This document shows positions 10,131 to 43,130 of a stretch of DNA of 64,000 nucleotides, in pieces. The position numbers and the translations under genes were made by a program. The notes beneath the pieces were generated by a model. That model ran no database searches. It was not told where the DNA came from and saw only the letters and a list, made by a program, of their open reading frames with translations. Origin of the DNA: Leucoraja ocellata (Eukaryota); contig JAWMAR010000151.1 in assembly GCA_036785375.1 (NCBI GenBank), positions 1,426,001-1,490,000 on the forward strand, in the 5' to 3' direction. Every line of letters starts with the position of its first letter. Within the stretch, counting starts at the first letter, position 1.

Positions 10131-10287
10131 TAAAGGACTTTCAAAAACTGTCTTCAGAAAATAAAAGACACATTGCCTTAAAAATAAATGTCCTGATCTG
10201 GGGTCTCAACATGCATGGACAATTCCTTCCCATAGGTGCTGCTGGACCTGCTGAGCTCTTCCATCAGTTTGTTTTTTTGCTGAAGGT

Positions 10288-10428
10288 CTTCTTCTTCTTG
10301 CGTATGGCGTGCACAGCCTAAAGTTGTCGGACAACTTGTTCTATTTGATCTTATTTGATTGTGCACGCCGGGTTGATTGCATTTGTCGAAACAGGGCGGA
10401 CCTCGTGAAGGTTGCAATCTCCCACCCC
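10288..10428 (-). mobile_element. 141-bp non-autonomous retroposon with ribozyme head and (AAG)4 tail
   Basis: 11-bp target-site duplication ttgctgaaggt at 10277-10287 and 10429-10439; (ctt)4 at 10288-10299; internal inverted repeats. Confidence 0.88.
10375..10428 (-). ncRNA. Minimal HDV-like (CPEB3-type) self-cleaving ribozyme, predicted
   Basis: GGGGUGG-GA-GAUUGCA-ACC-UUCACGA-GGU-CCGCCCU-GU-UUCGA-C-AAA-UGCAAUC gives P1 (G1.U wobble), P2, P3, L3 and the J4/2 catalytic C in the HDV nested double-pseudoknot order. Confidence 0.85.
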
Positions 10429-10704
10429 TTGCTGAAGGTTAGTGGACCTGAATGGCATGTATCCTCACTATTGAAAGGAGATTGTACAAAGCCTATTTCC
10501 CCCAAGAAATTCACAAATAGAAATGATGCCAAGTGATAAGCATAAGTGATAAGTTTAAGGAGTGTTCAAGAAAAGGGAACATGCCAGATAATCTTATCAG
10601 TTTTGTGTTAACGTTCAGAAGTCAAAGTACAGATTAGAATTCTTGTTGACTGACAAAAACATGACCTACTCAGAGACTGTATGAATTTGTTAAAGGTGTG
10701 TTAT

Positions 10705-12201: not shown

Positions 12202-12745
12202 TCTTCACTTAACTGTTAGAATTTAACATGTTAGCTGGAGTAAAACGTTTAATATCTTTGTATGTGGGGGAAAGCTGGATTATTGCATGCAAAAAGACTC
12301 TTGAGAATTTGTTGATAAAACGTTTGTATGGAGCTTGAAAACAGGTATTGACTAGTCGGACCGCAGGTCTGTTTGCGTGGTGTGAACAATTGATAAACTC
12401 GAAAATGCTTACAATAGTAATAAACCTGCACTCATGTAGCCCATTGGTGTTGTAAAAGTGATAGAAGTGGTTCACAAGAGATTGAATATGATGTAATATG
12501 AAACGGTTAACTGACCAAAAGCCTAGGCAAATAAGTAGGTTTTATATTATGGTTTGCTCAGCAGTGCCTCCAGCTTGAATGGTATTGCTTTATATATTGT
12601 GTGCATCTGTGGTTAGAGGTGGATAGTCGTTTGGGTTTTCTGTGTTTGATTTGCATGTCCTGTGCTTTTAAAGCCTAGCACATTGCATAATTATGTATGT
12701 TACCTCTATTTTCAGTTATAAATGCAGAGTTTTCAATCCCCACAG

Positions 12746-12856
12746 GCTATTATAAAAGAAGGACTTCTAATGAAACAGACAAGTTCATTTCAGCGATGGA
12801 AGAGAAGATACTTTAAGCTCCGCGGACGGATACTGTACTATGCAAAGAATTCCAAG
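12746..12856 (+). CDS. DGKD: DGKD coding exon (exon 2 equivalent), PH domain start: [37 protein letters not shown]
   Basis: Acceptor ccccacag|GCT, donor AAG|gtaaga; 111 nt, phase 0-0. Confidence 0.95.
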
Positions 12857-13019
12857 GTAAGAATAAATGCTAAATTTTCATTTACGGTTTTATAGCAGCA
12901 GATGTGACATTATCCTATCCGAACTTTCCATGGTGTAGTTGACTGTGCGACACGGTTTCCCAAATAGTTTTTTTATTTTACACCATCTGTGATCTTTATG
13001 CCAAAATGTAAATGCTGGG

Positions 13020-13480
13020 ATCCCTGGGATGGCGTGACTGTCATATGAGGAAAGATTGAAAAGACTAGGGTTGTATTCACTGGAGTTTAGAAGGATGAGG
13101 GGGAATCTTATAGAAACATATAAAATTATAAAAGGACTGGACAAGCTAGATGCAGGAAAAATGTTTCCAATGTTGGGCGAGTCCAGAACCAGGGGCCACA
13201 GTCTTAGAATAAAGGGGAGGCCATTTAAGACTGAGGTGAGAAAAAACGTTTTCACCCAGAGAGTTGTCAATTTGTGGAATTCCCTGCCACAGAGAGCAGT
13301 GGAGGCCACTGGATGGATTTAAGAGAGAGTTAGATAGAGCTCCAGAGGTTAGTGGAATCAAGGAATACGGGGCGAAGGCAGGCACGGGTTATTGATTGGG
13401 GACGATCAGCCATGATCGCAGTGAATGGCGATGCTGGCTCGAAGGGCTGAATGGCTTCCTCCTGCACCTTTTTTTCTATG
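13020..13480 (+). mobile_element. CR1 LINE 3' end, 5' truncated
   Basis: ORF 13056..13322 reads RLGLYSLEFRRMRGNLIETYKIIKGLD...FTQRVVNLWNSLPQ; tail resumes at 13671-13690 after an insert. Confidence 0.9.
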
Positions 13481-13672
13481 TTACACAAAAATGCTGGAGA
13501 AACTCAGGGGTGCAGCAGCATCTATGGAGCGAAGGAAGTTGGCAACGTTTCAGGCTGAAACCCTTCTTCAGACTGATTTCCTTCGCTCCATAGATGCTGC
13601 TGCACCCGCTGAGTTTCTCCAGCATTATTGTGTACCTTCGATTTTCCAGCATCTGCAGTAGCTTCTTAAACA
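13480..13672. mobile_element. Fold-back PLE pLTR-derived insert in the CR1 tail
   Basis: About 13483-13537 is the near reverse complement of about 13577-13634; hammerhead-like motif on the - strand between the arms; CR1 tail (cacct...ttttctatgtt) imperfectly duplicated on both sides. Confidence 0.8.
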
Positions 13673-16346
13673 CCTATTTTCTATGTTTCTAATGAAAGTA
13701 GGTCAGACAAGGGTTTTGAGGACTATTTTGAAAGAAGTAAAGCAGTTAAAAATGTTTTGTTAAGTTTAGAGATACTTCGTTTCGAGTAGGTCAGGCTCAA
13801 ACCCAGGTCTCTGGCACAGTGAGGCAGCAGCTTTACCAGCTGTGCTACTGTGTTGCCTTTGGAAGGAATATTGGAAAGAATTCTAAATTGAATGGCCTTT
13901 TCATTGGAAACATAATCATCAGTGATGAGGAAAATGGAATTGAATGAGTCAAAGGGATGGCAAGAGGAAGAGTTAATGTTTTTAAGATCTTTATACATGA
14001 TGGTGAGAATTTTATGTTGATATTGTTGAAAGACCTATACCTAATAGGATCAACAAACAATTGGACAGAATTGTGGACAGAATTGTGGACAGAAAGTTTT
14101 GGTTTTGTTGGTTTACAGAAAACATAGATGTAGAATGGGATCCAAATCTATTACTTTCTTAGAATTTAAAACTGAATGTGATTTTTTTTTTAACAAATTG
14201 TCAAAAGAAATGAATATTCCCTTTTGTGTGTTTTTTTAATAACCCGCTGTATTTATGGCCAGATGATGGGGAAGTTAATTAACAAAGGGAAAATATAAGA
14301 TCAAGGTCTTGGAATACCGGGTAAATTTAAAAGAAGAACCAATTTAGGTTTTTTCTTAAATTTCCTGCCTTTCCACTAATTGAGATGAAAAGCTACAAAG
14401 TTGAGAAAGCGGGCAGAACGCTATATTGAAATGCCTTTGAGAACATCCTTGGTACTGGGGAAGGTACAAGTGTTTAGGCTATATGGAGGGGAAAAAAGAG
14501 GTAATATTTAAGCAAAATGATAATGCTTGTTGGGAATAGGCAAAGATACGTGTTTTGGGAGGGAATCAAGTGAGTAGTAAGGATTTGTCAGGAGTGAGTA
14601 GGCATTTGGTGATGTTGAAAGGCTTTTATCAACAGAGAAAAATGGATGACGTTCTTAAAAGCCTTGGGATAATCATTCCTGCTTCTAATTCACATGGACT
14701 GAAGTAAAAGTCTAATCTTATTGAACCATCAAAACCTTTTAAGTTCATGTTTTTCAGAGAAACAGATATGGCAAGAATTAAATTTATATTAGGATCCAAA
14801 TTGCACCCAGCACTTTAACCCCTCTCATAAAAATGAGTACGGTTGAGTTAAAGGCCCAGTATTAACTATCCTGCTGTCAAGGGATGGTTAATATTGAGGC
14901 CAACATCTTAAGCTTTGCTCATCACATTTATTTGTGGTTATAGTCCATCTGTTTACTATATTTGTGCTGTTTTTAAATACATTCCCCAATCTTTTGTGAG
15001 TTTTTTCCCCCTCATCTTGCAAAAGTTATTGACTATTTATGGAATAAAACGGGAAACGATGGAAATGTTCAGCGTTAGATGACATTTGTGAAGAGAGAAA
15101 CAGATTCAATATTTCCCGTCACTGATAAGTTGATGCGTATTGCCAAAGTATATTTGATTTCACTTTTTCAATTTCTTGGGTATTTTGCTTTGGGATTCTT
15201 GGTGGAGTCTTGTCAAGAGCCAGGTTTTGACAAGGAGATACTGTTGAAGGCATTAAAATACGGTTCAAGGCATTGGAAGGCATGAAATAATGTACAGGTC
15301 CTGATCATGCTCCCACCCTAAACACGGTACTTTCCATGAATTATCACTAGTTAGCAGTCTTAAGGATGCCGAGACCATTTGTAATGAGTTTTAATTTCTA
15401 GTAGTTTCATTAAAGCCAAAAAGCACACAAACTAGAAGATAATAATTTGATCTTGTATCGCTGATGGCCACTATTCCTGAAAGCCTGCTTTCTCCTTTTC
15501 CTCCTTCATGTGTGTTATTTTAATTGGCCTCTTCTTGGCATGCTTGGTTAGGGTTTAGCTGCAGTTCAATTCTCAAACTCTATAATCAATGTACAAAGTA
15601 TTATAATTTTGTGAAAGCACATTACAAGTAGATTTCTTGGCTGAATGGTAGGAGCAGCTAACAAAACGGATTACTGCTCTAAACAAAATAAACTCACTCC
15701 ACTAGCATTGCTTCTCTCTCTCCTAATCCTAATATGGTATAGTGCACAGTACGTTTTAATTCTCTAATATAAACCAATTTGTAGCGTGTTCAATAGCCTT
15801 CTTATTATTACTAAGTGACAGATTTGTTCTGAGCCACTGGTTCTGAAATGGTAATTCTTGGAGCGAACAGATTGTCCACATTGCCGCTATAGTTTGCAGT
15901 CATGAGAAATGTTTAAGTATGACACACACACTGGAAAATTATTTTCTGACTGTTTAGTGCCATCTACAAATTCACACGGTATAAATTTAGATTTCCAGCT
16001 CCTCGGGCCAAAGGCCTCAATAATTTGGCAGCTATCTAAAGACAAACAAAAATGTAATGTGCTCAAGCAGGAAGTGGTTAGAGGCACAGTGCTCTAGCTC
16101 AAATTTTCTTATTATTCCCAATCCAACATGTAGCAGAATAGTTCTCTTAAAATAATAGTTGATACTATGATGATCTTTTGTTATATGAACATTATTATTT
16201 ATTGTTATATCCAAAGGAACATGATTCTCCTTTCTCCCTAGGAGTGAATTTATAAGATGATATTGTACATTAAGCTCTCCTAATTAGATCTCCTGAAATG
16301 GGACAGAACTGCTTCCCATTTCACTCATAAATCTTTATAATTATTT

Positions 16347-16642
16347 TAGTTTTAATTCATTGTAGAGATAGAGAAACAGGACCTTCAGCCCACCGAGTCC
16401 ATGCTGACCATTGATCACTCGTTCACTCTTAATTCTATGTTATCCCACTTTCTCATTCACTCTCTACACATTACAGGTAAGTTACAGAGGCCAAGTAACC
16501 TACAAACCCACACAACTTTCAGATGTAGGAGAATGACCTGGAGGAAAATTCCACAGCGGAAATTGCAAAATCCACATAGACAGCACCGAGGACAGGATCA
16601 ATCCTGGAACTCTGCAGCAGCTCTACTAGCTGTGTGCCGCCC
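16347..16642 (-). mobile_element. tRNA-derived SINE (HE1/V-SINE-like), diverged
   Basis: Same tail and core layout as 544-828. Confidence 0.75.
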
Positions 16643-16959
16643 TCAGTGGGCTGGAGTTGGGTTCTACCTTTCATTAATCTTACTGTATTTTATCTTTGGA
16701 TCATTGTACGTCTTAGTAATGTGACAAAAGATCAAATTTCCTCTCTCACCTCTCCAAAATAAGCCCCATCACTCTATTCCCACCCCATAGTGAAGAAGAA
16801 AATAAAAAGGAGTTTATCACTTTGAAAATCGATAAATAACTGGGGATAGATTACATTCAATGCTGTCAGAAGAAGTGAGAAAATTGCAGAACGTTGACTA
16901 CAGTTTTAATTCCTCCCTGGCATAAAAGAGTAATGCCAGAGAATTGGCGGACTCACAAT

Positions 16960-18380
16960 TTTGTACATTTTTAGAAAAGGGAAAAAGGGATTAAATTAAT
17001 TACAGGGCAGTTAAACATCATTTTTGGATAGAATTATTAGTTTTCATTTGGACCATATTAACCTTAATTTGGGTAGGTATATCTTAATGAAAGGCAGTCT
17101 TTATAGATTTGTAATGGGAATCGGACAAATGTGTTTGAATTCTTTGAGAAATGAACAAAGTTGACAAAAGCAGTGCATTCGATGCAGTCTGCATGACTTT
17201 TACAAGCTTTTTGACAAGGTCCCTCTAAAGTTAAACCCCATGGAAATGGCAGATTGGATCTAAATTTCTCAGTGACAAAAACTAACGGGTGATGGTTGAT
17301 GAGTGTTATTTTTGTGATTGAAAGACCTCAGTACTCAGCGATTTTATTTTTGTCAGATAGTTCAGCCCTAAACTTATACGGTTTGATAAAAAACTTAGCA
17401 GATGATGCAAAAATTGACCATGCGAGTGGAAAGCTTTACAGCAGGAAGGACATGATAGTCTGGTCAGTTAGAAAGAAAAGTGCCAGTTAATGCATTTGGG
17501 GAGGTGCAACAAAGCAAGGGAATATACAATAAATGGGATCATAAAGGATGTGAAGGAACAGAGCAACCATGTAGTATATATCCACAGATTATTACAGGTT
17601 GCAAGTAAACAGGTCAAAAGGTGATTAAAAAGGATATAGTATTATTTCCTTTTTTAGTCAAAGCACAAAATATAAGAGCAGGGAAAATTTCCTGGAGATA
17701 TATTCAGCCATCGTTAGGCTGCTCTGTTAAGCAGCTACTGCCCCATCTGTGGAAGGCTCAGCAACCCCCATATTATCCTCATTGAACATACAGAATCCAA
17801 GCGGAAGCAAGTCATCCTCAATCCTGTGCCTCTACAAATGTTGTGCTTTTATTAGCTCAGGATTAATCCCATCTGGACCTGGTGATTTACCTCTTAATTC
17901 TTTTTCATTTATTATCACAGTGGACAGGGCTGAGGGGGGGGGGGGTAGTTATACAATTATGGGCTTCTTTTAGAGATATTAGGTAACTTTTAGCTTGATA
18001 TAGTAGCTAATTCTACACGCATTTTTGGTCACCGTGTTAGAAGGAAAGAAGTGATTTCACAGGAGAAGGTACAGAGATGATCGTCGAGAATGCTGCCTGG
18101 ACTGAAATATAGCTATGAGGAAATAATAGATACGATAGTGTTTTGTTTTCTTTGCAACAGAGGGAGCTGAGGAAATGATTCATTGAAAATTATGAGGAAA
18201 CTACACAGACTGATTGAGAAGGACCTATTTCCCTTAACTGAAGAGTCAAAAGCCAAAAGGCACAGATTTAATGTAATAGACAGAGGTTTGGGGGGGGGGG
18301 AGTAGATTTATGGTTTTTTTATGATCCATTTAATGGATGGTATAGGTCTGAAACTCATTGCCTGAGAGGGTAGTAGAAGT
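16960..18380 (+). mobile_element. Old CR1 LINE ORF2 remnant (continues at about 19158-19305)
   Basis: Decayed RT motifs: aattacagggcagt (NYRPV), tttgacaaggtccc (FDKVP), gcagatgatgcaaaaatt (ADDTKI), and C-terminal segments. Confidence 0.7.
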
Positions 18381-19157
18381 AGAATGTGTATATGTTTTCG
18401 TATGTTTTCAGTTTATTTTTAGTTGTGTATATGTGTGTGGGGGGGGGGTGGGGGGGGGGGGGTTGCAGGGAATTTTTAAACTTTTTAATTTCTTCCTTGA
18501 ACTGAGACGCGACCTTTTCCTTGTCGTGTCTCCGTTTCGCTGGGGCCTAACATTGTGGAGCGGCCTCCAACCGGAATCGACCTGTGGGCTCCAGTCGCGG
18601 AGCCTGCGGACTCACTTACTCACCTACCGTCGAACTCACTCACCATCATGGAGCTGGCTGACTCGGAGGCTGTGGTGGCACGGCGGCTGCGACTCGACTG
18701 CAGAGCTTCGGAGGCTTCGGCCGCAGGCCCTGTGGATGGTAAAATCGGGAGCTCCAGGTCACTGGTGGGAGACTGATTTTCGGGAGCTCCCGCAACGGCA
18801 ACTTTACCTGTCCCGAATCGCGTGGTTTGAATCGGCCAGTCGCAGGGTCTTACATCGCCCAGCGCGGCTTAACCGGCCGCGGGACTTACCATCGCCCGCC
18901 GGGGGCTTTAACATCAAGAGCCTCAATCGCCTCGACGCGGGAGAAGAACAAAGAACAGGGAAGAGATAAGACTTTTGCCTTCCATCACAGTGAGGAGGTG
19001 TTTGGAGATTCACTGTGATGGATGTTTGTGTGAAACTGTGATAGTTGTGTGATATGTTTATTTTAATGTTGTGACTGCAGGGAACAACATTTCGTTCAAA
19101 CCTCTGTTTGTTTGAATGACAATAAAGGCAATTTGTATTGTAATTTGTATTGTATTG
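18380..19157 (+). mobile_element. CpG-rich non-autonomous retroelement inserted into the old CR1
   Basis: Abrupt GC/CpG-rich block interrupting CR1 sequence; ends gaatgacaataaa plus (ttgta)n; 13-bp hairpin 18981-18993/19010-19022. Confidence 0.65.
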
Positions 19158-19511
19158 TAGAAACCCTTGATGCTTTAGAACCGTGCTTGGATGTGAAGAG
19201 CAGGGCTATCGAGTAAGTACTGGGAGGTAGGATTAGGTTGGGTAGTTCTTTTTCAACAGACACAATGGGCCTCCTGTGACGTAACATTTTTATGATTCTA
19301 TGATTGATCACTGCGATGTAAGTTTCAGATAAGATCCTCCTATTGATCTCACTAATGGGAGTGTGGGGTCATCCCACACCATTAATCTCATTGCCAGTGG
19401 GTATGGGGCCAGTTTCACAGCTCGACTTTCTATGATGTATTTCCGTCTATTTGCTTGGTCTCTTACGTACAGCACTGTGCTTTCAATAAGTCTTGTATTT
19501 TTTCCTTCCAG

Positions 19512-19592
19512 TCCATCATATTTGATGAGGTCGATTTAACAGATGCCAGTGTTGCAGAATCCAGCACCAAAAATGTTAACAACAGTTTTACA
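19512..19592 (+). CDS. DGKD: DGKD coding exon (exon 3 equivalent), PH domain: [27 protein letters not shown]
   Basis: Acceptor ttccttccag|TCC, donor ACA|gtgagt; 81 nt, phase 0-0; visible within ORF 19455..19643. Confidence 0.96.
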
Positions 19593-22129
19593 GTGAGTAG
19601 CCCTGAATTGAATGATATTTATCAAGAATCTTGTCCTATCTAATAATGTAACTGATTAGATTTTTTGCTAATAATAAGTACAAGTGGGATTGCTGCTTAT
19701 CGAGGAGGTAGCTACAATAACTCCCATTTACATTGTGTTTTTAAGGAAGCAAGAATGTCCCAATGTACTTTTCATGCAACATTACAAAATTATATCATCA
19801 GCAGTTGTCATTTGTTTTAAGTGTAATGATTCCATTTGATTTTGCATCAACTGGGGATGTTCCATGCTACAGAGCAAACTGGTATTTACTGAGGACCTAT
19901 TATTATCCCAGGATTTCAATGCACAGAGGAGTATTTCTGAAGTACAGCCGCTGTTGTAACTTCAGAACTAGTCTAATTTGTATGTAAAAGATACCCCATA
20001 TGGGGATATAGATGAAGAATCAGTTAATTGTATGATGTTGGCCAAGGCATGTGTTGGCAAGAATTGCTGTTAATTAGGCCTGAATTATTTTCAGCTATAG
20101 ATTTTAACTCCCTTTCTTGCTTTTTTTAATCATCCTGATCTATTAATTCCATTGTATAATGGAGTATTAAGTGTAAGTCAAGAATTCTGAACATCTGGCG
20201 CATAATGTTACATCTTAAGAGTTTGAGAGACTGGAGAAATCAGATGTTGTGAATTTGTATATTAAGCACAAAATGATGCAGAAGTTGGGTGCTGTGTTAG
20301 GATACAAATGGCACTTCCAGGAATTAGGTGAAATGAGCTAACTTGTAGGGTCAAAAGTGTGCTGATGTCAGGTGAAGCAAACTATGATGTAGGAGCAAAG
20401 TGGTTGCAGAGGTTAGATACAGCTGGATATGGAGTCTAATATGTAGACATGCAGTGACCTCAGTTCCTTCTTACACAAAATGCAGTGGCAGAAGTTAGAT
20501 ATAATGAACAGAATTGTGTGGATAGATTACAGAGAAATGAAAGAGCAAGGTCAAAGAAGAATGTGTGTTTTTTAACTTTGATTTATTGGGCTGAGTTTGT
20601 AATTTTTGTTTTGGCATTAAAGAGTGAGATCAATCTTCCTATATCAAAAATATCTTTTTATTTAAAATAATAAAATGTACTGCTCCCAAGTCCAAGAACC
20701 AGCTTGCAGGCTCCTCACACAGTGCTAATCTGTTCCAGGAACATCAGGCATTAGTGGTGGAATTTCCTGTGTCAATAACTGCTACTCTCACAACTCTAAC
20801 CTTGGGCAATAATCCTGATACAATGACACTACAAAACCAGCACATTCATCCTGGTGAGTGTTGGCAAGGATTGAATGCGAGCTACAAGGATGGAAGGATG
20901 CGTGGCTGTGTTCTTCCTAGAAAATAGAAGGTCCTGCACAGGTAATGCAGCATAGTTGAGTCACAGGTCAGTCTCCTTGTACAAAGGGCATCATAATAAT
21001 AGAAACCCTCCAAAAATATAAATGTAAGGGAATGTGGGAACTCTGTGAAGACCAGCACTTGGGGAGGCCGGCACGGTAGGCAAATACAAAAGTTTTCAAA
21101 AATGGAGGGTCCCTTACCCTGTCCTATTTGTCACTTTTCAGCGAGCAGCAATGTGCTATGTGAGGCATATCTCGATAGATTCTACAATAATCCTGTTAAG
21201 ATTTCCAAGAGCAAAGGTAACGATGACAATGACTTTGAGACTATTTTCAGACACTTGCGTTTGTTTGCTATTTGAGGTTTATCGAGCAACCTAACACAAG
21301 TGCAAGTACTTCTCTCAGAGTCAAATTCAAGGTCGCCCTCGCTCTCAAAAAGCTTTCTTCAAGACCGCAAGTGATATATGAAATTTACGTGCTTAATTAT
21401 TCACGTTCTATTGCAGGTGTAGAGAATAGCTCTGCTGTCAAAGTGGATAAAGTTCAACAAATGCAACGTTTGCATTCACACCTGGAACACAACATTTGCA
21501 TTCTCACCATTCACAGAGGATACATGCCTTCTAGACATCTCCTTAGTAATCTTCTGCCATTTGTCCAATGTTTTTTTATTTACTCAATTCTCATCTGATG
21601 AATATGAAACAATTTCTTTTTTAAGGATTTCTTTTCACATTTCTGATTTTTTAGTTTTGAGGGAAAAGCTGCGATAACCACAGGAATGTGAGGACAGACA
21701 TTCTGTTGGGGTCAGTTTATTTACAGATTTTCAGGCAGAGAGCTGTACAGCACTCTGCCTCTTGCTGCTGATGGGATGTGTCTGACTTTTAAAAGCAAGC
21801 CTTCATTGTTATTAAATGCTGGATCTTTGGTAACTGAACAGTGTCATCTGTAGTTCAAACCAGCATGCTTGAAAATCTTGCCCAAAATTAATTTTGTATA
21901 CTGCAGTATCTGCCATAATTTGGACGGATTTAGCACCAGAAAGCTTACAGCAAAATGTGCTTCCTTTATTAATGACTAGAGCCAGGATTTTACCATAAAT
22001 GCAATGTGCCTTTTCATGCCTTTTTTGATGATTTTAGGAAGATTATGCCTTTTTCACAATTTATTTTGCCGTAACTTAACTTAACTTACAAGAACATTTA
22101 CACCACCGGGGCGAAACCCAGCTGTAAGT

Positions 22130-22677
22130 GGATGTAAGTGGTGATTGGAGAGGGGTGTGTGGGAAAGGGTCCAGTCTTTGCAGGCTGGAGTCATACTTTA
22201 ACTAGGTGTGAAGTGGTGATTGGGGAGGAGGAGTTGGGGAAGGGTCCAGTCTTTTCAAACTGGAGTCAAGCTGTGAGTAGAAGAAGGGTTTCGGCCCGAA
22301 ACGTCACCTATTTCCTTCGCTCCATAGATGCTGCTGCACCCGCTGAGTTTCTCCAGCATTTTTGTGTACCTTCAAGCTGTGAGTAGTTGTGAAGTGTTGG
22401 TTGGGGATGGGGTGTGGGGCTACCAGGGTTAAGTTGTTGTTTATCGAACATGCAGTAGAACTCGTTCAGGTCATTGGTCAGCTGACGATTGTCCAAGGAG
22501 CCAGGGTTTTTCCTCTTGTAGCTTGTGATTTCTTGCAAGCCCTTCCACACTGAAGAAGAGTCATTTGCTGAGAACTTGCTCCTCAACTTCTCAAAGTACC
22601 TTACCTCGGCAGCTCTCATTCCTCTTCTCAGCTTGTACTTGGCCTGCCTGTAGAGGTCTGCATTGCTGCTCCTGTAG
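22130..22677 (-). mobile_element. Rex1/Babar-like LINE internal fragment
   Basis: ORF 22308..22619 reads YFEKLRSKFSANDSSSVWKGLQEITSYK...LTNDLNEFYCMFD, the endonuclease-RT linker typical of fish Rex1/Babar elements. Confidence 0.75.
22281..22371 (+). mobile_element. Short PLE pLTR-derived insert
   Basis: 15-bp TSD tcaagctgtgagtag at 22266-22280 and 22372-22386; nearly identical to 2181-2267. Confidence 0.9.
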
Positions 22678-25454
22678 GATCTACCCCTCCAAGCGTCAAA
22701 ATGCCTAAAGTCAAGTCAACGTCTTGTAAAAAATTGAACGATTTGGTGAGAGTGTATGGGAGCAATATATTCTTTACAGACAACTGTGTGCTGTTTTGCA
22801 AAGCATGTGAGAAAGCAGTGAATCATGAGAAGGAATATTTCATCTCCCAGCATGTACAGACAGCTAAACACAAGTCGGTGGCAGAGAACTGAAGGTAGAT
22901 AAATACGCTTGTCTCCTCACATTTACTGCTGGCTCCAGTCGTAAATCTGAGTTTTCGAGTGATCAGACAAGCAATACAAAGTTAAGTATTCAACCAAACG
23001 CAATGAAAATAAAATCTATTTTATCTAAACATATTAGATTAAATGTATCCTTAAACCGAACAACTCAGATATATTCCAATCTTTGTGTGGATCAGTGACA
23101 AGGCAGACCTGAATATTGGCATCATTGTCCAAACAAGTTAATAGATTGTAACCCAATTGATTCTGTACTATCCCCATGAAAATATGATGGGTTTGTGCAT
23201 TTCCTTTGTACTGTGCCAGTTTGCCCTCCTTACACAAATTGCTCTAGACTGACCAATTAGAATCCGCTTTGGCTGAAAAAGCATCTGTTAATGCCAGGAA
23301 GTCCACTTTGTAAATTGCTCAGATGACACGAATGTATGTGCCTTGAGTTATTGCCTGAGGCAGTCCCACTTCCTCTCATGCCAGAGGATTTTCATTAATT
23401 TTCACCACAAGGGGAACACAGGTTGTTTCTGCTGAGAAGTTCAGCATGCTTGCATTCTGAGCTCCTCCAGTCACCAGTCCAGTAAGATCAGAAGTCCTGC
23501 TGAATGTTTTTCTGAACAATGAGATATTGCGTGGCCTGCATTCCAATATCACTTTTTTTTTTATTGCATCAGACGTGGTATTTAGACGTGGTCAATGCTT
23601 GGGAGATGGTGCCTTCCAACACGTTTGGAAGGCGTCTGCTTAAAAAGTAGCTGAGCAGCTGTCTTTGAGCACAATGCTCTGAATTAGTGTGCCTTTGCGC
23701 TGAGTTAACAGAAATGTTTGTGAGCCGTGGTTAAAAATAGATTTGAATTTATATCCAGGATATCAAGGATATAAATTCAGGATATCCCAAAGTATTTTTG
23801 AAGTATAGCCATTGTTGTAATGCAGGAAAATATTTATGCATTCTTTTGATATAATTTTTATGCGACAGTTAGGCAAAAGAGGAAGATAATCATATATTAA
23901 TTACTTATAATTTTCATGACGATTTAATGCTAAGATGACCACTCTACTATATTTAAAGACTCATTTTTCTTTGAATATGATTTAATTCCCAAGTATAACA
24001 CTTGACCTCTTTTGTGAAATGTTCACAATGTTCAAACACAACAACACTCATCTAGTTCCTTGTCATCATACAATTATGTATCTGACAGTGGTTGAATATT
24101 ACAAGAAAATGAATCGACACCAACGTTCATGACATCATAAAGACAAACAATGTGAAATTTAATTGATCTATTATAGCCTTTTATTCTCAGGTGCTTGAGG
24201 TCTACATCAGTTCCTGTGTTTCTTCCATCCTTCCCCTTGCTCTCCTTCCAATATTTTGGAGATTATTTCTGTTTCCCATTCTCGGAATCAGCTCTAGTTG
24301 CACACAGTAATATCAAGACGATAACTTAGAATTTTGGGCTGCTGCAGGTACATCTGGCATTATGTTGGTTATCCATTGTGCTGTGTATGTTCATGACCCC
24401 TTTCACTCCCTGCACTTGAATTGATTTGCTTTCTTCTCCTGGGGAGGCAGACAGACAAAGTTAGGCATGTTTGTTAGGAAATTTAAAAAAAATAGTTAGA
24501 GGAATGGTAAGTGAATGAATCTTTGTTCATTATTTGTGCAGCCGCCATTCATGCTATGGTGATGATGCCTTACACTGCCACAGCCACGGAATACACATAT
24601 TCCTGCCAGTGTGCAGCTGAATTGCCTTGACAGATGGGATTTAATTACTCATGTTCAGGTCACCAGGAAAATAAACAAGACCAGTTCTGGCTTGAGGAAA
24701 TCAACCAGGCTAGATAAATAGCCAGCCAGCCTCTGAAAAGTGTTTTACTTTGATTCCTGCTCTTTCCATCCTGTATCTTACACACTTCTGATATATCTAG
24801 CATATCATATCTTCTATATCATTTTGCTTCATTTTCATGCGTCTATCTCTCCTATTTTGTTGAGTTTCCACCCAGATTAATTAATTTGTCTCAACCTTGT
24901 TTCTCTGTCCTGTTGCTTATTCCATTTCCTGCTCTCCTCTGCTTCCTATTCCCTTATCCATCTTTTGTGCAGCCGCTGATAACTAGTGAATTTTTCTCTT
25001 TAACTTTCTGATATCGTAGTTCCCATTTCCTCTCAGATAGAATCAGTAATTTATTTATTTGCCCATTTCCTCCTATGTGTTTGCAAAATGCCTTTTTATC
25101 AAAAATAAAGACTTTACCTTTCCATGATCTCATCCTAGAGGAACTCATTCAGTCTGGCTGATTCAGGTCTTGCTGGTAGCAGGTTCCCTTTAACATTGCA
25201 ACACCCTTACCAGTATGAACTATTTATTCTGCGCATGTGTGGAATTAAAATAGGCACTGTCACTTAAACTTTTTGCTATTACCTGTACATTCAAAACACT
25301 GCCTTCACAATTCTTTTTTTTTCACTACTTTTTAAAACAGACCACTAATACTTGGCTACACAAAGTGAATGGAAATGGCATCTCATCCCCTCTAGTGGGA
25401 GAAATGACATTGGAAGAACAGTTCTAGTTGGACGTGGGAACAGTGAGAATTTTA

Positions 25455-25785
25455 GAATCATGGAATCAAGATGTATCACAGAAGCAGGCACTTGGGACCA
25501 CTTAGTCCATACCAATTATCAAGCACATACACAAATCTTACCTTAGCTCATTTTATTCTTCCAACGTTTCCATCATCTCCTCCCCCTTCATATTTTTACC
25601 TTGGGACAATTTACAGTGGCCAATTAACCTACCTAACCCACACAATTTTAGGATGTGGGAGGAAACCCATGAGATCACAGGGTCAATGTCCAAACTCCAC
25701 ACATTCAGAACTGGCGGTCAGAATTGAACCCAAGTTGCTGGTACTATAAATCAGCGACTCCGCTGGCTGCACTGCTGCACCGCAA
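25455..25785 (-). mobile_element. tRNA-derived SINE, diverged
   Basis: Core (caatttacagtggccaattaaccta...ggatgtgggaggaaacc) and decayed box B. Confidence 0.7.
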
Positions 25786-28700
25786 GGATATTTGCAGAAT
25801 GCCTTCTATCAGAAAAGGCCTTTCCCTTCCATAACCTAATCCAGGACGAGCACGAGGCATCATGTTGAAGGAGTGAAAGTGACGGTATGTTTAGAGAAAA
25901 TATAATTCCACTTGTATTCTGCAGCACCTGACCTTTGAGTTTTTTATGAGAAAGATTAAGGGAGATTTATTCTATGTGTATGCCCACTCGTGTGGAAATT
26001 AGGAATTTTTTTTGAAGGAACTTTATTCTGAATCAAATCCCTGCTGTTCCTGATCTGGGAATTTTATTTCTGACATTATTGAGAGAGCTTTACTCTTTGT
26101 CTGACTTGCGCTGTACCTCATAGAGTCTGTTGACTAACCAAATCTGTGTCAATCATCAAGCATTCATAATGCTGATCCTATACTAATTATTTTCATTTCT
26201 CTCTATGTTCCCATCATTTTGCTTTAGATTCTACCATACAACTATGTACTAAGGGTGATTTATTGTGGTCGATTAACAAAATCATTAATATATGAGAGGT
26301 AACCGGAGCAACAATAGGGAACAAATGGGGCCACACAGACAGCATTGGAGGTTAGAGTTGCTCCTGGGTCACAGGAACTGTAAGGCAGCAGCAGCCAGGG
26401 CTCTGTAATGATAGTGAATTTGTCTCTGGCCTGCCATTCTGTAAAACTTCCTGACCATAGTTATCTCATTGATTAGGGTCAAGAGTAGGGAAGTCCTTGG
26501 GTCAAGTTTATGCAGTCCCTTAGGCCAATGAAGTGGGTGGATGACCTGAAAGCTGAATTTAGCCAGATAAGATAGATCAGGCAGAGCAAGGCTACAAGAT
26601 AGAGATTGTATAAACTGGATAAGAGTCAGCTCACCTGGCTTCATTTATTTTCCCATGTCAGCTTGCTCTGGTTTATCTTCCTGTGACTTTAATATAATTA
26701 AACGAATTACATTGCCACAGTAATTGAGTTATACAGTGACAGGCTAAACATAGCTACTGTGCAGTTACAACACTGCACATTCTCAATACCAATGGCACAG
26801 ATAGAGTGGCACAAATGTTGGACAAGGATTCACTAAGTTCCAATTCTCCCAAATGATTCCCTGTATCATGGATTTAGCATGTCTTTACCTTCAGAAGAAG
26901 GAAACAAGTAATGAAATTCAAATCCTGACAGGAAGTGAAAAGTCTTATTAACACTGCACTAGAGTAGGTGAACAGTCCTTTTTACTTCAAATGTCAGTCT
27001 TGTATTATCATGAAAATTTAAAAAATGCAGGCTGAAAATAAAAGCAAAAGATGTAGACAAAACTCAGCGGGGCAGGCAACATCTGTGGAAAAATAAACTA
27101 TTTTTCTTTCCTCAAATGTCTGCCCTGCTGAGTTTTATTTTCTTTTCTTTTTGTATTTACTGAATTACTGAATCCTTTAAAGGGATAGAAGTCCCACTAA
27201 AGAAAGAAGATTGAGAGATGATAGAAATAACAATAAAATGCTGTGACAACTATGATTGGAATTTGACTACCGCTACCATTCGCTGCAGGTTAACTTTCAA
27301 TGTCCTTGGACGAGGATTTCCTGCTGTTTATCCCACTGGACATGAACTCACTTCCTCATGTCATCCTGTTAGTGTTGACCAGACTGCTGTTTGAGACAAG
27401 GAACTTCAGATGAAGTCTATTTGCCTCAGGACAAAAAAGTGGATAGTAATGAATTATTTCTGAGATATTTAAACACAGTGTATACATGTAGCACAGATTC
27501 TAATAGAATAGAAGCAATGGCACAAAATAATTGCCAATGGCACAAAATAATAAGAGGGAAATGTGTTATTTAAATGCAAATACAAAAATCCCAAATGAAC
27601 TGAAATTCAAAGTTTGTCATCTGCAATGAGCTGATTGCTATTGACTTGACAAAAAGCAGCATGTAGCCTAGAAAATACAAAAAATGCGATGAAGTTTTTG
27701 TATTTTAATATAAATCTGAAGGAAGCACATCACAGAAGTTAGTACTTATACCTTTCAGAACTGATTTGCTGTGTTTCTGGTTTTTCTTTCATAATCCAAA
27801 ATATCTTTCTCTTTTTTACTGTATAGCTGATGAGAGCTTTGTATTCAACAGCTCTTTCTTGTTGTAAACCTGGACTGTTCTGATTGTCCCTTGGTACTGA
27901 TCCCAGATTCTCTGGAGAGACTGCCACTTGGCTTATTTTGCATGCTTTCAATAACTTATATAATCATACTCTTAAATGAGTATTGACAAGTCCAACTAAG
28001 GTTACTAAACAAAAAAGAAGAAAGAAAATTGATTGTTTCAACATATAGCTCAGTAATTTTCGGCAGTCCAAAAAAAAAGATGCAGTTTAATTGTTTTAAT
28101 CATTAGAGTAAATTTGGGAATTAAATAATAGGAATTTAAATTTAATACATGCTGCACCCTAGTATTTTACCATCTCTTTAAAAAAAATAATCTTATTTTG
28201 ATTGTCATTAAGAACCTCCTATATTTTAATGCCCCTTTGCAGAACTTCAATGACAGGCTGTAGACGTTATTTCCTTGCCAAAATAAATGATGAATAATCA
28301 TCAGTTTTCAATTTTATGTGCTCTTATGAGGTCAGAAAAGATTTCTCTCAAAGATAGACTTCTTACACAGTCACTTCGAGTTGAGGAGGACTATTCTTGC
28401 TCCAATATTTTAAGAAGTGGAAGATTTCAAAATTTCCCTCGATATGTGTGGACTTTGCACACCAACCTGCAAAAGGATTTACCAGAGTCAGGTCTTGGTT
28501 CAATGGCTTTGCTACACTAACTTATCACACATTGTAGGCACATATGGACACACATAGACAAATACACACACAGTCGCACGCACATTCTAACCACTGACAG
28601 ACAAAAAATTGTGCACTTGACCAAGCTGTCTTCCACCAACGCCTGAGTCCTCACTAGGTTTGCTCTTAATTCTCTCCCACCCTCAGTTATGCTTTCTCAA

Positions 28701-29344
28701 CCCTTCTGTCTCTGCATCCTGTCTCCTTCTCAACCCTTAAGCCTCTTAACTCACCCTCTTCCTCAATAGTTGAGCCTTCCCATTAATTTTTAACCAGACA
28801 ACAGGATAAACATTTGAAATGGAGGTTGATATTGGACTTATCTAGCACAGAATCAGTTCAGTATATAGTATTTGATCTCTTTAAACGATACTAAATTATA
28901 TTTAGTGGCTCTTATCAAGGATCCCTTTTCATCAATGATCAGGTGCACTATGTGATGTGCAGCCTAAATCACTCATATTGACATACAGATCCTTTAATCT
29001 TTTTCTTGCAAACAAGCATTTACTGTTTCAAAAAATTCTTCCTCAGTTTATATGCATGCTCTTTGTTCATTTTAGTTATCTTACTCAACAATTTATCAAA
29101 TGGGAGTGTGATGACAAGATTTCTAAGTTAGCTATTATATTTGCAGTTCATGCTGATCTTAATCCAAGCCTCCCACGTGCAACAAATTGATTGCACATTT
29201 TTTAGGATTGAGCTATAAATATATTGAAACTGAATCAGCCTATCCCGTATATCTGCAAATGTGTTGTACGACAGGCCAGCATATCTGCTTCACTTAGTTT
29301 TTTTTTTAAGTTACGTACCCTGTCCAGCAATTTACAGAAAATCT

Positions 29345-29588
29345 CTCCCTTCCCCTCCTTCCTTCTTTGCCTCCCTCCCTCCTTCCACCCCTCTCTGCTT
29401 CCCCTCCTTTCCCTCCCTCCTTCCATCCCTCCCTCCTTCTCCCCCCCTCCTCCTTAACCCTCACCCCCTTTGCCCTCACCCTCCCCTTCACCTTCTCTCA
29501 CCCCCTCCTCCATCACCACCCTCTCCCCATCCCCTCCCCCTGCCTCTTCTCCGCCCACTCCCCCTTTCTCTCGCCTCCGCCTCTCACT

Positions 29589-29624
<36 letters not shown>

Positions 29625-29632
29625 ACACACAC
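29345..29632. repeat. C/T-rich low-complexity tract followed by (CA)n microsatellite (29592-29632)
   Basis: Read directly. Confidence 0.9.
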
Positions 29633-29819
29633 TGCCTACCTAAATGCTCACCAACCTGTTTATTCTGTGAACATGCATTATGTATGCACTTCAAAAAATA
29701 GTTGTTTGATGCATTTTCGCTGCTCCATTGGAAGTATGCTGAGTAGATTATAATTTCCCTGATGTGTAAATTATGAAAATCAATAACATTTGCCGGTACC
29801 ATAATGTTATGTTACAGTC

Positions 29820-30357
29820 GTCCAAGAAGTTGTTGAGGCCACATTTGGAGTATTGTGTTCAGTTTTGGTCATTCTGCTACAAGGATGAGGGCAGGGAAGA
29901 TTTGCACGGATGTTGCCAGGACCTGAGGACCTGAGCTATCGGGAGAGGTTGGGCAGTCTAAAACTTTATTCCTCAGAATGCAGGAGGATGAGGGCGATTT
30001 GTTGGAAGTATATAAGATCATGAAGGGAATAGATAGGGATGCACAGTCTTTTACCCAGAGTAGGGGAATCAAGAACCAAAACCACGTAGGTTTAAGGTGA
30101 GAGGGAAAAAGTGATAGAAACTTGAGTGGCAACTTCTTCCACACTGAGGGTGGTGGGCATATGGAATGAGTTGCCAGAGGAGGTTGTTGAGGCAGGTACT
30201 ATAACAGCCTTTAGAAGACATTTGGAAAGATATAGGGATAGGAAAAGATTAGACGGATATCGGTCAAATGCAGGCCGGTGGGACTAGTGTAAATGGGTCG
30301 GCATGGGCAAGTTGGACCGAATGGCCTGTTTCCATGCATTATGACTCTATGACTCCA
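29820..30357 (+). mobile_element. CR1 (HER1-like) LINE 3' end
   Basis: gaggccacatttggagtattgtgttcagttttggtc (RPHLEYCVQFWS) through the tail ggcctgtttcc and (atgactct)n. Confidence 0.85.
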
Positions 30358-32795
30358 TAATCAATTCTCATAAATACATAACATGAATTCAGTACTTGGA
30401 AGCTGCCTTACCAAAATGGACAACAGCAACAGTTCCACCACAGTTAAGGGGCTTATCCTCAGCCAGTGAAATTAAGTGTAAAATGTAGATGTAAATAAGA
30501 TATCATGTCTTTAGCTTATGGTATCATTGCTTGCTGAAGAAGAAAGTGGTTGAATTTGGAAACATCAGCACCAGCACAGATCTTAATTCAATGTAGATTC
30601 CTTAAATTCTGAGTGCCACAGCTTTTAGCATAATAGAAAAAAAAAATTCTCTACATAGCAGGAATTCTTTTGTTGATTCTTCTGAAAGGTATTTTCAAAC
30701 AAATGACAAGGTTCTATGAGTTTCTCACACAAGTTAGGTTTAAATTGTCCCACCATTCCCAGCAATGACAGTGTTAAAAAGTTGGAGGAGCAGTACAATT
30801 TGTCCTTTGGAGTTCTGAATGGGTCAGTTCCGCTGCAGGGCATTCCCTGTGGGCTCTGTACTATTTTAGTCTGTTTGTCTCCAACAGACCTTCCTCATTT
30901 CTGTGAAGGGTGTGGTTTAAAGATAGTCAGGAATTTGAAGTACCTCAGATCTTCCTGGTGCCACTGTTTGGAGCTCCACGGGAGTAGCTTTTCACCACAG
31001 GATTGGCTCTCCCACAGCAGGATGTGTGTATTAGTCACACAGTCAGAGCCACAGTCAAACAGGGTGTCGAAGGCATTAGAGTTCCCTAAGTGATGCAGGA
31101 ACTTCTGCCACCTCGCTGGTTGTGTTGTATAACTGCCGCTGTATGATTACTGCTAAGTCTGAGGTGCACAAGGCGTTTACATTTCACATTTGTGAAAGGA
31201 TTTCCTCCAGTAGTAATATGACCATTTTAGAATGATACATAAGATAGAGAAGGCCTGAGTGCTGAGCTCTCTCAGATTTTAAACCCAGTCCATGATGGTG
31301 CATCCTGTGAAACGTCAGCAGTAAGTGAAGCTTTGCATTTTTAACCACGAGATTTACTAACCCTTTAGGGGCTGAGTATTTACTTGACTCTTTCAAAATG
31401 TGTTCTTATGTGTTTCTTTCATTGGTCTTGGGCTGAAGTGTTTTTTCCTTGTCCGTCAAAAGATGAATGCTTAGATCTGGAGTTAGATAGTTACGATGAT
31501 TCTTGACACTTGACTTGACTTGACGATGTGAAATATATAAACTGATCCGAAAAGTTATTTTCCTGCTGAAACTCCAGGTGCAATTCTTATAAAGATCCTA
31601 GCTGAAGATTAAAGTAAACACTGCTTGGAGTTAATACAGGATGACTTATACTGAGCTGAGGGGATCCATTAAAGTTCAAAGATATTCATTTTGTTTTCCT
31701 CGTGTTCGAAATTTTACTTTTTGTGATTTTAAAACAACACCCTGCATCAGGTATGAACATATACCAGTCAAACCTTTGGTTCCCCTCTCCCAGTTTGAAC
31801 CACAAATGTTACAGGGATTTCAACAAAATTAGAACAAGCGAAGCAACATTTTATTAACTGTAAGTATGGAAACTACTGGAAACACAATTCAGGATACTCT
31901 GTGTCAAACTTAAGATGTACAAATGAGATCTTTGGAACTAACGTCCTGGTGATTGCAGGTCTAAACTGCTGTTGCGATGTACTGATAGGGGTAGGATTCA
32001 CAATATAATATTAAACAAGTGAATTTATTGGTGCAGATTTGTCAATGTTTAACACTTTCTGAATTTCTGAAGAGTACAGATCTGTTACTGTACTGTAAAG
32101 TAGGAGTTTGTGACCGTATAACACTGCATTGAAGAAACTGATGGATCCAGGATTATAGTTCTGCTATAATTCGGAGAACAAAACAAAACAAAAATTCGGG
32201 GAATATTTTGTCTTTAGAGAGGGAATCAGCATTATCATTTCAGGGCAAATAACTTAATATCAGGCCAATCAATGTAGGAGAGACAGGTTTGTGTGGGACT
32301 GATTGAGGAAATCAAAGGGACAGGCAGCTAGAAGCTTTGGCTAACTGACTGGCATTCATCCATTATGCTAATCTTGTTGTGAAAAATGGATTAACACTAC
32401 CAGTCCTCCTCATTTGAAGCACAGGAATGTGTACTGGATGGATCCCCTTACTCAGAATTTATATAACCAGCCCACCTAGTCCCAATCTGGAAGAACCATG
32501 CTGAGCCCGGATGCTTGGAAGCTTGTGTTGAATCAGAACCTCAAAACATTTTTAGTTATGATTCAATTATGCTTTACATGTAGCTTGGTACAGTGAAATG
32601 GTTTGTTTTGCATACAAATCGTACAGCAGACCTCACCTGGGCAGCACACAATAGTTGCCACGTGCCTGGCACCGACAAAGTTACAAAAGTCCACCGAACA
32701 GTCCTATCTTCTGCCTGCCGCCACATGTGGCAGCAGGCGGCCCCACGTCTGTTCCCCCCCATAGATTGTGGCTTACCTTGTCCAATGCCCCTTTA

Positions 32796-33035
32796 TAATA
32801 GACAATAGGTGCAAGGAGTAGGCCATTCGGCCCTTTGAGTCAGCACCGCCATTCAATGTGATCATGGCTGATCATCCCAATCAGTATCCCGTTCCTGCCT
32901 TCCCCCCATATCCCCTGACTCCGCTATTTTTAAGAGCCCTATCCAGCTCTCTCTTGAAAGCATCCAGAGAACATTGCCTCCACCGCCCTTTGAGGCAGAG
33001 AATTCCACAGACTCACCACTCTCTATGAGAAAAAT
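32796..33035 (-). mobile_element. CR1 LINE 3' end, 5' truncated
   Basis: Matches 8390-8610 and 10735-10929. Confidence 0.85.
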
Positions 33036-33552
33036 GTTGTCAAACAAGGTCTATCAGTCTTAATTTTAAAATGTTTCATTCATCCATGGGCTTATTAACT
33101 TTTCATAGGAGGGAATTCCATACTTTCATTGCCATTTTTATGTTTCTTAATGGCCTTGGTTGCAATTCAATGGCTGACACCTGGCCTCTGAACTAAAGAG
33201 GCTGTGACCTCACTGCAGAGTGAAACTGAGTAGTCAGATGAAGAGGGGAAGTGGAATTTTTTTCCATTTTCGGCTATTAAGGTGGGAAACCTTTTTGAAT
33301 TTATTTTAAGTATTGAAGGAAAAAGAGATTAAATTAATTTGCTGTTTTGATCCTGAGCTGGGAATTATGTCCGTTTTTAGTTGAGTTGCAGTGAATGCAA
33401 GGCGTGAATGGATGAAATTGGATACTTTGAGTTTGAATAGCCATGAACATAACACTATTAAGGCACTGTCACACTGATGTTTACATGAATATTGGCCGAG
33501 GAGCTGTCATTTACTATTTACTATTTCTAAACAAAGAAGCTGTTTATTGTTG

Positions 33553-33653
33553 GTTACACAGAAAAGCTGGAGAAACTCAGCGGGTGCAGCAGCATCTATG
33601 GAGCGAAGGAAATAGGCAACGTTTCGGGCCGAAACCCTTCTTCAGACTGATAC
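33553..33653 (-). mobile_element. Short PLE pLTR-derived insert with intact minimal hammerhead motif
   Basis: 15-bp TSD agctgtttattgttg at 33538-33552 and 33654-33668; almost identical to 1357-1454. Confidence 0.9.
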
Positions 33654-34496
33654 AGCTGTTTATTGTTGACAGCAGTCAATTTGCGTACTCTGGCAGATTA
33701 ACAGTTGCCTGCTAATTACATCGAGGGCAAGACCACAAAGGGCCCACTTTCTATTTTACTTATCTAATCAACCTAAACATAATTGATATTCCTGGAATTA
33801 ATTAATTGTTTTAATGTTCAATTACTAATTAGTTTCTCTTCTTAAATTCATTTTGGGAAGTCGACTTATTAATTGGAAGCTAGTATTGGTTTTGAAAATG
33901 ACACAAAGAGACTGTTGCAATCTGGATTAGAAAAATAAACTGCTGGAGGAACTTTACAGATCAGGTAGCAACTGTGGAGGCAAAGTAATCTGCAATGTTG
34001 TGATAGTCAAAGTCCTGATACAGGGGGTCTCAACCCAAATGTCAGCCTAAAATATCCCTTAGTTGCCTGAGTTGCTCCAGTAGTTTTGTTTTTGAAGTTT
34101 CCTTTTTTTTCTGAATTAGTAACCACTCCTTTTTACTGCCGGTCAAAATGCAAGCTGAAAATAACTAGATTTCTATTTTTATATATTTACAAAATAGTTT
34201 TAACTGTGGCATTTTGTTTTACAATAAAACATGACATACTGGGTGTGCCAAAGGAATCTGATATGACAACTGGAGACTCTTGTCAGTTTAATCCTGGATC
34301 CTCTGTTATGCTGAGCTGTCTAGCTATTTGCTAGCAGGATAAGGCAAAGGTGATGGATTGCTTTTCATTGTCAATTAATTTGCAGGTAGACACAAAATGC
34401 TGGAGTAACTCAGCGGGACAGACAGCATCTGCCACCAAAATCATTGAGTATGGGCTTTTCTGTGGAACCTTGATTAACACCCAAACTATTTTGATT

Positions 34497-34695
34497 ATAG
34501 TCATAGAGTCATACAGCGTGCGTCAACCCAACTAGCCCACACCGGCCAACGTGTCCTATCTGTACTAGTCCCACCTGCCTGCATTTGGCCCATATCCCTC
34601 CAAACATGTCCTGTCCATGTACCCATCTAATTGTTTCTTAAACATTGCGATAGTCCCTGCCTCAACGACCTCCTCTGGCAGTTCGTTCCATACAT
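34497..34695 (-). mobile_element. CR1 (HER1-like) 3' end
   Basis: (agagtcat)n tail and reverse-complement similarity to 30160-30357. Confidence 0.75.
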
Positions 34696-36214: not shown

Positions 36215-36375
36215 ACACTAAGCTTTTATTACAACACACTGAGCTTTTCTTTTCTCTCTCGTTTATCATATCATACTATGTTTGCATATTATTTTGTACT
36301 GCAGCAAGTAAGAATTTCATTGTTCTATGTGGGACATGACAATAAAACACTCTTGACGCTTGACTCTTGACTTGA
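36215..36375 (+). mobile_element. Rex1/Babar-like LINE 3' tail fragment
   Basis: gcagcaagtaagaatttcattgt...tgacaataaa plus (tcttgac)n; related to the insert at 52999-53261. Confidence 0.6.
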
Positions 36376-38389: not shown

Positions 38390-38720
38390 TTTTCTGATCT
38401 GGATGTCATAGGTAAGGCCAATATATATCACCCATCCCATTTGCTTTTGAGCTGATGGTGCGCTAACTGTTTGAACCTTTATGATCTTTCTATTGGAGGT
38501 ACTCCCAAAGTATTGTTAGCTTGGCAGTTCCAGGATTTAGACCCATTGAGAATGAAGGACAGGAGAGATATATTTGCAAATCAGGATGTTGAGTGACTTA
38601 GAGGAGAATCTGTAGGCGAGGGTATTTTTATATTCCTTTTGATCTTCCGCTACTTGTTGGTATAGACTACAGGATTGAAGATATTATTAGTAATCTCAGC
38701 AAATATCTTCAATGCGATTT
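38390..38720. mobile_element. Ancient interspersed repeat (LINE 3' region; related copies at about 2480-2670 and 45925-46000)
   Basis: Shared segments ggcca.tatt..tc.ccat...ttgc.tttgag and ccaggattt.g.ccca...gatatattt seen in three places in the window. Confidence 0.5.
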
Positions 38721-42910: not shown

Positions 42911-43130
42911 TATCTGTTAAATGTGCTCTTTTTTGGAATGAAGCATTATCAATCTAACCATCCCAAAATAAATTTTAAAATGGCATCCAGCATTACTATA
43001 TCAATCATCTAGGAGGAAGCCTGAATTAGAAACATTTTTTAGATATTAGAAAAATATTACAGTTGTTCTATCTTGAATTGCTTAAAATGTCTCTTATTGG
43101 CTGATGATTTGAGCAAACTGTTAAAAAATT

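Follow-up and report, generated by a model that had tools for sequence, protein, structure and literature searches.

LINEs that have lost their interior and persist as two joined ends are an already known kind of element (PMC5786205 and PMC4035085, each in part), and bipartite non-autonomous elements of this sort are known from four clades, Vingi among them (PMC5786205, in part). Vingi LINEs carry a compact single APE/RT frame without RNase H, which excludes Ingi proper, and Vingi-1 is under development for gene writing with its native UTRs (PMC13708176, in part). A further relevant system is the mammalian CPEB3 ribozyme, which has been reported as not found outside mammals and as unexplained in origin, its ancestral reconstruction having stopped where non-mammalian relatives were lacking (PMC8233481). 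The locus described here touches both subjects. In the largely open-access literature searched, no prior description of the family was found, and an earlier one could exist in Repbase, Dfam, patents or Kojima's supplementary tables.

The insert lies in a stretch of 64,000 nucleotides (the window), which at least 20 public runs listed from seven organisms contain; none of those listed is recorded as RNA, which speaks neither for nor against transcription. The evidence favors a model, to which we assign a probability of roughly 70%, in which the insert is a self-releasing, internally deleted derivative of a Vingi-like LINE with predicted catalysis. According to this model, a non-autonomous derivative keeping the first ~81 nt and last ~40 nt of the LINE would be transcribed from host promoters, whereupon its 54-nt P4-less HDV-type head would fold and cleave immediately before G1, so that the RNA set free would be uncapped and have a precise 5' end. 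Its 3' end with the (AAG)n tail would then be recognised by an APE/RT protein of a Vingi element, possibly aided by a stem between the 5' and 3' parts, and insertion would proceed by target-primed reverse transcription with a target-site duplication (TSD) of 10-14 bp. The features of the insert are collected in Table 1.

Table 1. Features of the insert and its surroundings, in window coordinates.
Feature	Position	Strand	Remarks
Retroposon, 141 nt	10288..10428	-	nt n of the element is window position 10429-n
TSD copy 5' of element, 11 bp	10429..10439	.	exact repeat
TSD copy 3' of element, 11 bp	10277..10287	.	exact repeat
P4-less HDV/CPEB3-type ribozyme fold, 54 nt	10375..10428	-	predicted cut 5' of G1 (10428)
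P1, 5' strand	10422..10428	-	partner 10393-10399
P2, 5' strand	10413..10419	-	partner 10375-10381
P3 (10410-10412 with 10400-10402), closing L3 (10403-10409)	10400..10412	-	10403 is a minority variant
G37-U38, putative partners of C22 and U21	10391..10392	-	CPEB3 one-pair-plus-U.U pseudoknot; from sequence, PMC9901934 (in part) and alignments
J4/2: putative catalytic C44 (10385), then N-A-A	10382..10385	-	copy and family comparison
Segment from parent LINE 5' end, nt 1-~81	10348..10428	-	84-95% identity over nt 1-77 in 15/30 loci
Junction, ~12 nt	10336..10347	-	possibly a local duplication of nt 72-80, by resemblance
Segment from parent LINE 3' end	10288..10327	-	last codons, stop, 3' UTR, (AAG)n tail; 17/19 LINE 3' ends
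TAG stop inherited from LINE	10318-10320	-	followed by 18-nt 3' UTR
3' domain: 10-bp stem, 10360-10369 (LINE-5'-derived) with 10306-10315 (LINE-3'-derived)	10306..10369	-	folding
Hairpin enclosed by the 10-bp stem	10321-10337	-	folding
Type II diacylglycerol kinase exons (PH, C1, C1, DAGK_cat)	12722..62849	+	domain matches

The boundaries given in the preliminary description, an exact 11-bp TSD and a terminal (AAG)4 on the minus strand (10288-10299), are both present. The same description placed the insert antisense to DGKD; the antisense orientation to a type II diacylglycerol kinase on the plus strand stands, the kinase being possibly delta (DGKD) or eta. The insert precedes the first kinase exon found by 2.3 kb, and the DAGK_acc exons lie just beyond the window end.

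The head follows the nested HDV order P1-P2-P3-L3-P3-P1-J4/2-P2, as had been proposed, with a 7-bp P1 and a 3-bp P3, and a descriptor parse returned its helices as claimed (P1 7/7, P2 7/7, P3 3/3, L3 of 7 nt), with wobbles at G1.U36 and U5.G32; the putative catalytic C is likewise in place, followed by AAA. A "vestigial P4 with a UUCG loop", part of the same proposal, was rejected. Because such a remnant would use up both G37, which would form the pseudoknot pair with C22, and the catalytic C44, a head without P4 and with a 5-nt linker is the preferable reading, on the pattern of the CPEB3 arrangement (PMC9901934, in part). The insert does contain L3 as UUCACGA, the terminal A not being the family form: genome-wide, the exact head pattern has A at this position in 96 copies and U in 8,200, and the U form is the L3 of CPEB3. 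Rfam returned only chance matches for the 141-nt copy and no HDV or CPEB3 model, and neither the element head nor that of its parent LINE matched RF00622 (CPEB3_ribozyme, >35 bits). Plain folding of the insert did not recover the pseudoknot (z -1.46). In a local fold prediction the upstream flank pairs with P1, and given this predicted pairing the window copy may cleave slowly. A relaxed HDV descriptor, applied to 976,820 bases of fetched loci that are enriched for the family, gave 47 distinct matches with C at the catalytic position as against 1 with A, 2 with G and 4 with T, and 0 matches in shuffled loci.

The element is a multi-copy family, as anticipated, with at least 8,200 copies and about 25,000 estimated. 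In the 3.44-Gb genome the majority head pattern occurs exactly 8,200 times and a 21-nt tail pattern 3,968 times; since 10 of 30 tail-selected copies have the exact head pattern, recapture yields ~24,600 copies, an estimate affected by duplicated haplotype stretches in the assembly and by over-sampling of young copies. Such stretches, seen in G000:C325 versus C151 and in many paired loci, inflate counts. The best 40 matches are 98-100% identical to the window copy, and the tail-selected copies, which include three assembly-duplicate pairs, 78-98%. The 5' ends pile up at G1, which the preliminary description had singled out as the property to look for: nt 1-9 are kept in 26 of the 30 tail-selected copies (counted by script, which missed L056 through an internal deletion and found L060 borderline), and in 24 the TSD reaches G1 to within 1 nt. 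None of the 30 is a LINE body. Among these copies the majority letters are U at nt 26 (26/29) and G at nt 45 (21/30), so that the family L3 and junction equal those of the CPEB3 model. The catalytic C is present in 26 of 30 and all core features, by a strict parse, in only 6 of 30; within the family, copies decay neutrally. Copies that happened to lie in other fetched loci are too rough a basis for density: 2 were seen in 582 kb of loci that overlap one another, and 7 matches, one of them self and one a duplicate, in 247 kb. A 20-nt head pattern had 0 matches in a metagenome scan. Several further arrangements were seen. Element copies ~2 kb apart form two mirrored clusters inside a tandem repeat (G000:C1:19261560-19279231 and 19408539-19431509), L018-L025 share one flank common to many places, and L064, L084 and L087, together with loose RNA ends at 10352 and 10359, point to one or more older subfamilies that differ in their middle segment and are likewise expressed.

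The origin of these copies was traced through LINE searches. A search with an RT motif that we take to be of Ingi/Vingi type gave 274 matches from several families with short 3' UTRs and mostly (AAG)n ends; the first loci were mostly 5'-truncated and had no visible parent, and the parent LINE was found via an APE search, from which 40 loci were fetched. At its 5' end, element nt 1-77 are matched at 88% by L221 and 86% by L227, with the APE frame following, and of the 30 loci retrieved with the LINE 5' UTR, 15 have the head at 84-95% identity. At its 3' end, element nt 103-141 follow the RT and the C-terminal Cys/His motif in L233 and L218, and nt ~102-141 come directly after the last codons in 17 of the 19 LINE 3' ends fetched (of 40 matches). 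L233 and L253 each carry both element ends on one LINE copy. On these alignments the element is an internally deleted, bipartite LINE, both of whose ends come from one ~3-kb LINE, and its properties (both LINE ends, no ORF, TSDs and the parent's tail repeat) are those of a bipartite non-autonomous LINE (SIDE). The preliminary reading as a SINE has accordingly been replaced: the element is not a classical SINE, its head being the LINE's own 5' end. The suggestion that it borrows a LINE RT through its 3' tail is incomplete: the 5' end comes from the same LINE too. The absence of a tRNA head, which that description had noted, was borne out by search. A tRNA/Pol III head was rejected, with no tRNA match and with A and B boxes of 3 mismatches each, and a search for a 7SL, 5S or snRNA-type SINE head found none.

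The parent LINE is ~3 kb long with a single ORF (Pfam APE and RVT_1) and begins at the same P4-less head. Pfam identified no RNase H in it, nor was RNase H present among the 120 listed of 321 homologues of a sister-family protein. A compact single APE plus RT frame of ~1,000 aa without RNase H fits a Vingi-like parent, an assignment made by the published description; neither the ESM atlas nor the homologue search gave a clade name. RTE LINEs, too, have one APE/RT frame without RNase H. It is therefore conceivable that the parent belongs to another ribozyme-bearing clade, RTE or Ingi proper, of which the element would be a plain new member, the more so as RTE gives bipartite derivatives too (PMC5786205, in part). 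However, this seems quite improbable, as the Ingi/Vingi-type motif produced the 274 matches and the ~1,000-aa frame without RNase H fits Vingi and excludes Ingi proper (PMC13708176, in part). All four long parent copies inspected are broken and resemble one another at about 85%, as against values of up to 98-100% for copies of the element; with parent copies old and broken and element copies young, another family may mobilise the element. The youngest LINE family seen, family C (L141-L170), whose copies are ~97% alike and which has a long P4 and an (AAG)n tail, is a candidate mobiliser in trans.

Ten LINE families, namely the parent P and families A-I, share this fold and start at its P1. With one natural representative each, 151 of 160 helix cells are paired and 14 of 16 pairs have a compensatory change, whereas exchanging strands between families leaves 107 paired on average and at most 126 in 5,000 shuffles; this parse was guided by structure, in that the junction fixed the position of P2 and a single bulge was tolerated. 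The catalytic C is found in 10 of 10 representatives, themselves located by that C. When 12 heads were aligned by MAFFT without such guidance, 88% of the 201 cells were paired and 15 of 17 pairs showed two-sided change, with 0 of 500 shuffles as good and slid registers at 38-47%; three rows of the alignment are family P, and kinship inflates such tests. The letters of the P1.1 pseudoknot, C22 and G37, whose pairing is predicted, and the catalytic C44 are nearly invariant in this alignment. The covariation that the preliminary description had called for is thus seen across the ten families. P4 is 15-43 nt long in nine families as against the 5-nt linker of family P and of the insert, which places the latter among minimal (P4-less) HDV-like ribozymes. 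That families alter the helix sequence yet keep the pairs, L3 and C-N-A-A argues for selection on RNA structure and not on a DNA motif. A panhandle between the 5' UTR and 3' UTR as a clade feature is only suggestive: shuffles as strong numbered 6, 5 and 5 of 500 in families A, B and C, and 127, 34 and 203 of 500 in the weaker families D, E and G; for the parent they numbered 72 of 500 with one copy and 6-176 of 300 over 11 copies, and off-diagonal 5'/3' pairs sometimes score better. L208/L127, L215/L130 and L142/L116 show such complementarity, in differing sequences, between the short 3' UTR and the part of the 5' UTR that directly follows the ribozyme. Family F (L236, L237) has many young copies on small contigs, and its head scores a weak 32.8 bits against the bacterial HDV-F-prausnitzii model.

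Transcript ends were tabulated from four raw RNA runs of organism B, possibly a relative (word share 0.55-0.73), namely single-cell X21 and X22, from one study, and bulk X23 and X24. Loose ends at 10428 numbered 1,660 reads in X21 and 1,406 in X22 (of 4,076 and 3,851 aligned). Read in reverse complement, their consensus is the full 30-nt template-switch oligo (agreement 0.73 and 0.68), identified as that of Drop-seq (PMC5927767, in part); in most of these reads, therefore, reverse transcription had run to an RNA terminus at G1, and discrete RNA 5' ends coincide with the predicted cut site. The median loose length is 31, not 30. The bulk runs have mixed flanks at 10428 (agreement 0.43 and 0.39), and the four-run tabulation contained no places where many unclipped molecules begin. 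Depth is 3.5-8x higher in the element sense than antisense. At 10298, 323 and 267 reads have poly(T) ends, which indicate priming at, or polyadenylation after, the tail. The cut could happen in the tube, and a start site at G1 would look similar. Indeed, the sense excess and the RNA ends at G1 would also fit a head that is, also or only, an internal promoter starting at G1 in the manner of Pr77 of L1Tc/NARTc, the fold being secondary or a relic. The 77-nt head of L1Tc combines promoter and ribozyme (PMC8256844 and PMC4035085, each in part), and two stretches of the element weakly resemble an A box (nt 5) and a B box (nt 37). However, ten families that alter the helices while keeping the pairs, L3 and C-N-A-A would not be expected of a promoter motif, and the loose-end consensus has no extra cap base. 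As capped RNA mostly adds one base in template switching (PMC6885630, in part), the consensus fits uncapped RNA, cap status at the G run of the junction being ambiguous by one base. A head that acts, also or only, as a promoter is considered unlikely; a dual role, promoter and ribozyme, is possible.

The same reads bear on a further alternative, in which full-length Vingi heads are active and the P4-less head is dead or nearly so, the junctions arising from copying of the whole 141 nt and the template-switch signal being a G-run artefact. Minimal forms are fragile in principle and most copies have decayed; in addition, template switching is biased toward a 5' G (PMC6885630, in part) and strand invasion is a known artefact (PMC6280765). 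However, the oligo's three G lie beyond the element's four, and the resulting seven G at the junction are unlike strand invasion, which would overlap the G runs and leave three or four. A read-through template would include the upstream flank, yet the TSD abuts G1 in 24 of 30 copies; the parent LINE also starts at a P4-less head, and P4-less HDV-like ribozymes are active in vitro (PMC10879173, in part). We regard a dead head as very improbable and retain self-release by the P4-less head as the working model.

The sister heads extend the comparison to CPEB3. Against RF00622 (cut-off 35) they score 64.2, 60.4 and 50.1 bits, and up to 64.7; genome-wide, 56 of 59 scored candidates, a lower bound, exceed the cut-off, which families A, B, H and I reach. 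Family A heads score 56-64 bits and lie ~190 nt before the APE start in LINE copies that are nearly full-length (e.g. L208:4101-4174 - and L203:343-416 +). Another 20 RF00622 matches that were fetched come from more families; in L290 the head continues into the APE start, and L294/L299, which are internally deleted copies, combine it with a C-terminal segment and a 3' end of Vingi-like type. Of the heads seen, those of the Vingi-like family H (L293-L295, L298, L299, L301, L304, L307; e.g. L293:321-391 -) resemble the mammalian ribozyme most closely: by hand count L293 agrees with the RF00622 consensus in 55 of 62 aligned positions and has one inserted base, and the agreement extends to all 14 P4-stem bases. 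This stem can vary freely and is unrelated among the other families. A second short bipartite derivative of ~160-170 nt, with a CPEB3-like 5' half, LINE 3' end and (AAG)n tail, was seen in L305 and L309, where the catalytic junction is not obvious. The simplest reading of these matches is that the sister heads and the CPEB3 ribozyme are homologous, and the CPEB3 ribozyme is probably an exapted Vingi head. Jointly, we consider it fairly likely that the Vingi clade starts with HDV-type ribozymes, that the element is a P4-less, self-releasing 141-nt version, of which a vertebrate genome has acquired tens of thousands of copies, and that the CPEB3 ribozyme is an exapted Vingi-type head inserted in CPEB3 before the marsupial-placental split. 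No text treating CPEB3, ribozyme and Vingi together was found in the largely open-access literature searched, and the available passages covering both Vingi and ribozymes held no link between them.

The present data add a vertebrate, high-copy, P4-less case to the ribozyme-headed non-autonomous LINEs and record transcript ends at the predicted cut site. They also offer a source and outgroups for the CPEB3 ribozyme, whose origin becomes testable from flanks and assays. The pre-mRNAs of host genes could be cut by thousands of intronic copies in sense orientation. As Vingi-1 gene writing uses native UTRs, the design of its templates is touched by a 5' ribozyme and by a minimal template of 141 nt.

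Among known systems, the trypanosomatid NARTc, RIME and SIDER1/2 of L1Tc/ingi resemble the element in joining two ends of an Ingi-group LINE and in carrying at nt +1 an HDV-like ribozyme with activity in vitro (PMC4035085, in part); the element differs in its vertebrate host, its Vingi-like parent without RNase H, its 141-nt length and its tens of thousands of copies, and its 54-nt head has no P4, whereas L1TcRz has one. The R2 SIDEs of Drosophila likewise retain a 5' ribozyme and a 3' end after internal deletion (PMC3414825, in part); however, R2 is rDNA-specific and uses a restriction-like endonuclease, while the element is dispersed with TSDs of 10-14 bp. Vingi-1_EE derivatives, Bov-A, RTESINE1/2 and WALLSI3, bipartite elements of Vingi or RTE origin, have the same architecture (PMC5786205, in part). 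Minimal HDV-like and theta ribozymes share the lack of P4 and a catalytic C placed first in J4/2, although nearly 99% of them are in tailed phages beside tRNAs (PMC10879173, in part) and the present head belongs to a vertebrate LINE and its derivative. The CPEB3 ribozyme (RF00622) shares with the element family its L3, the G-U after P1, the C-G-A-A junction and the G1.U wobble; however, the element head has other P1-P3 sequences, no P4 and no match to the RF00622 model, and CPEB3 is single-copy, intronic and conserved by selection where the element is multi-copy. Seen against these systems, the element is a P4-less, vertebrate, Vingi-like variant of the ribozyme-headed, internally deleted LINEs.
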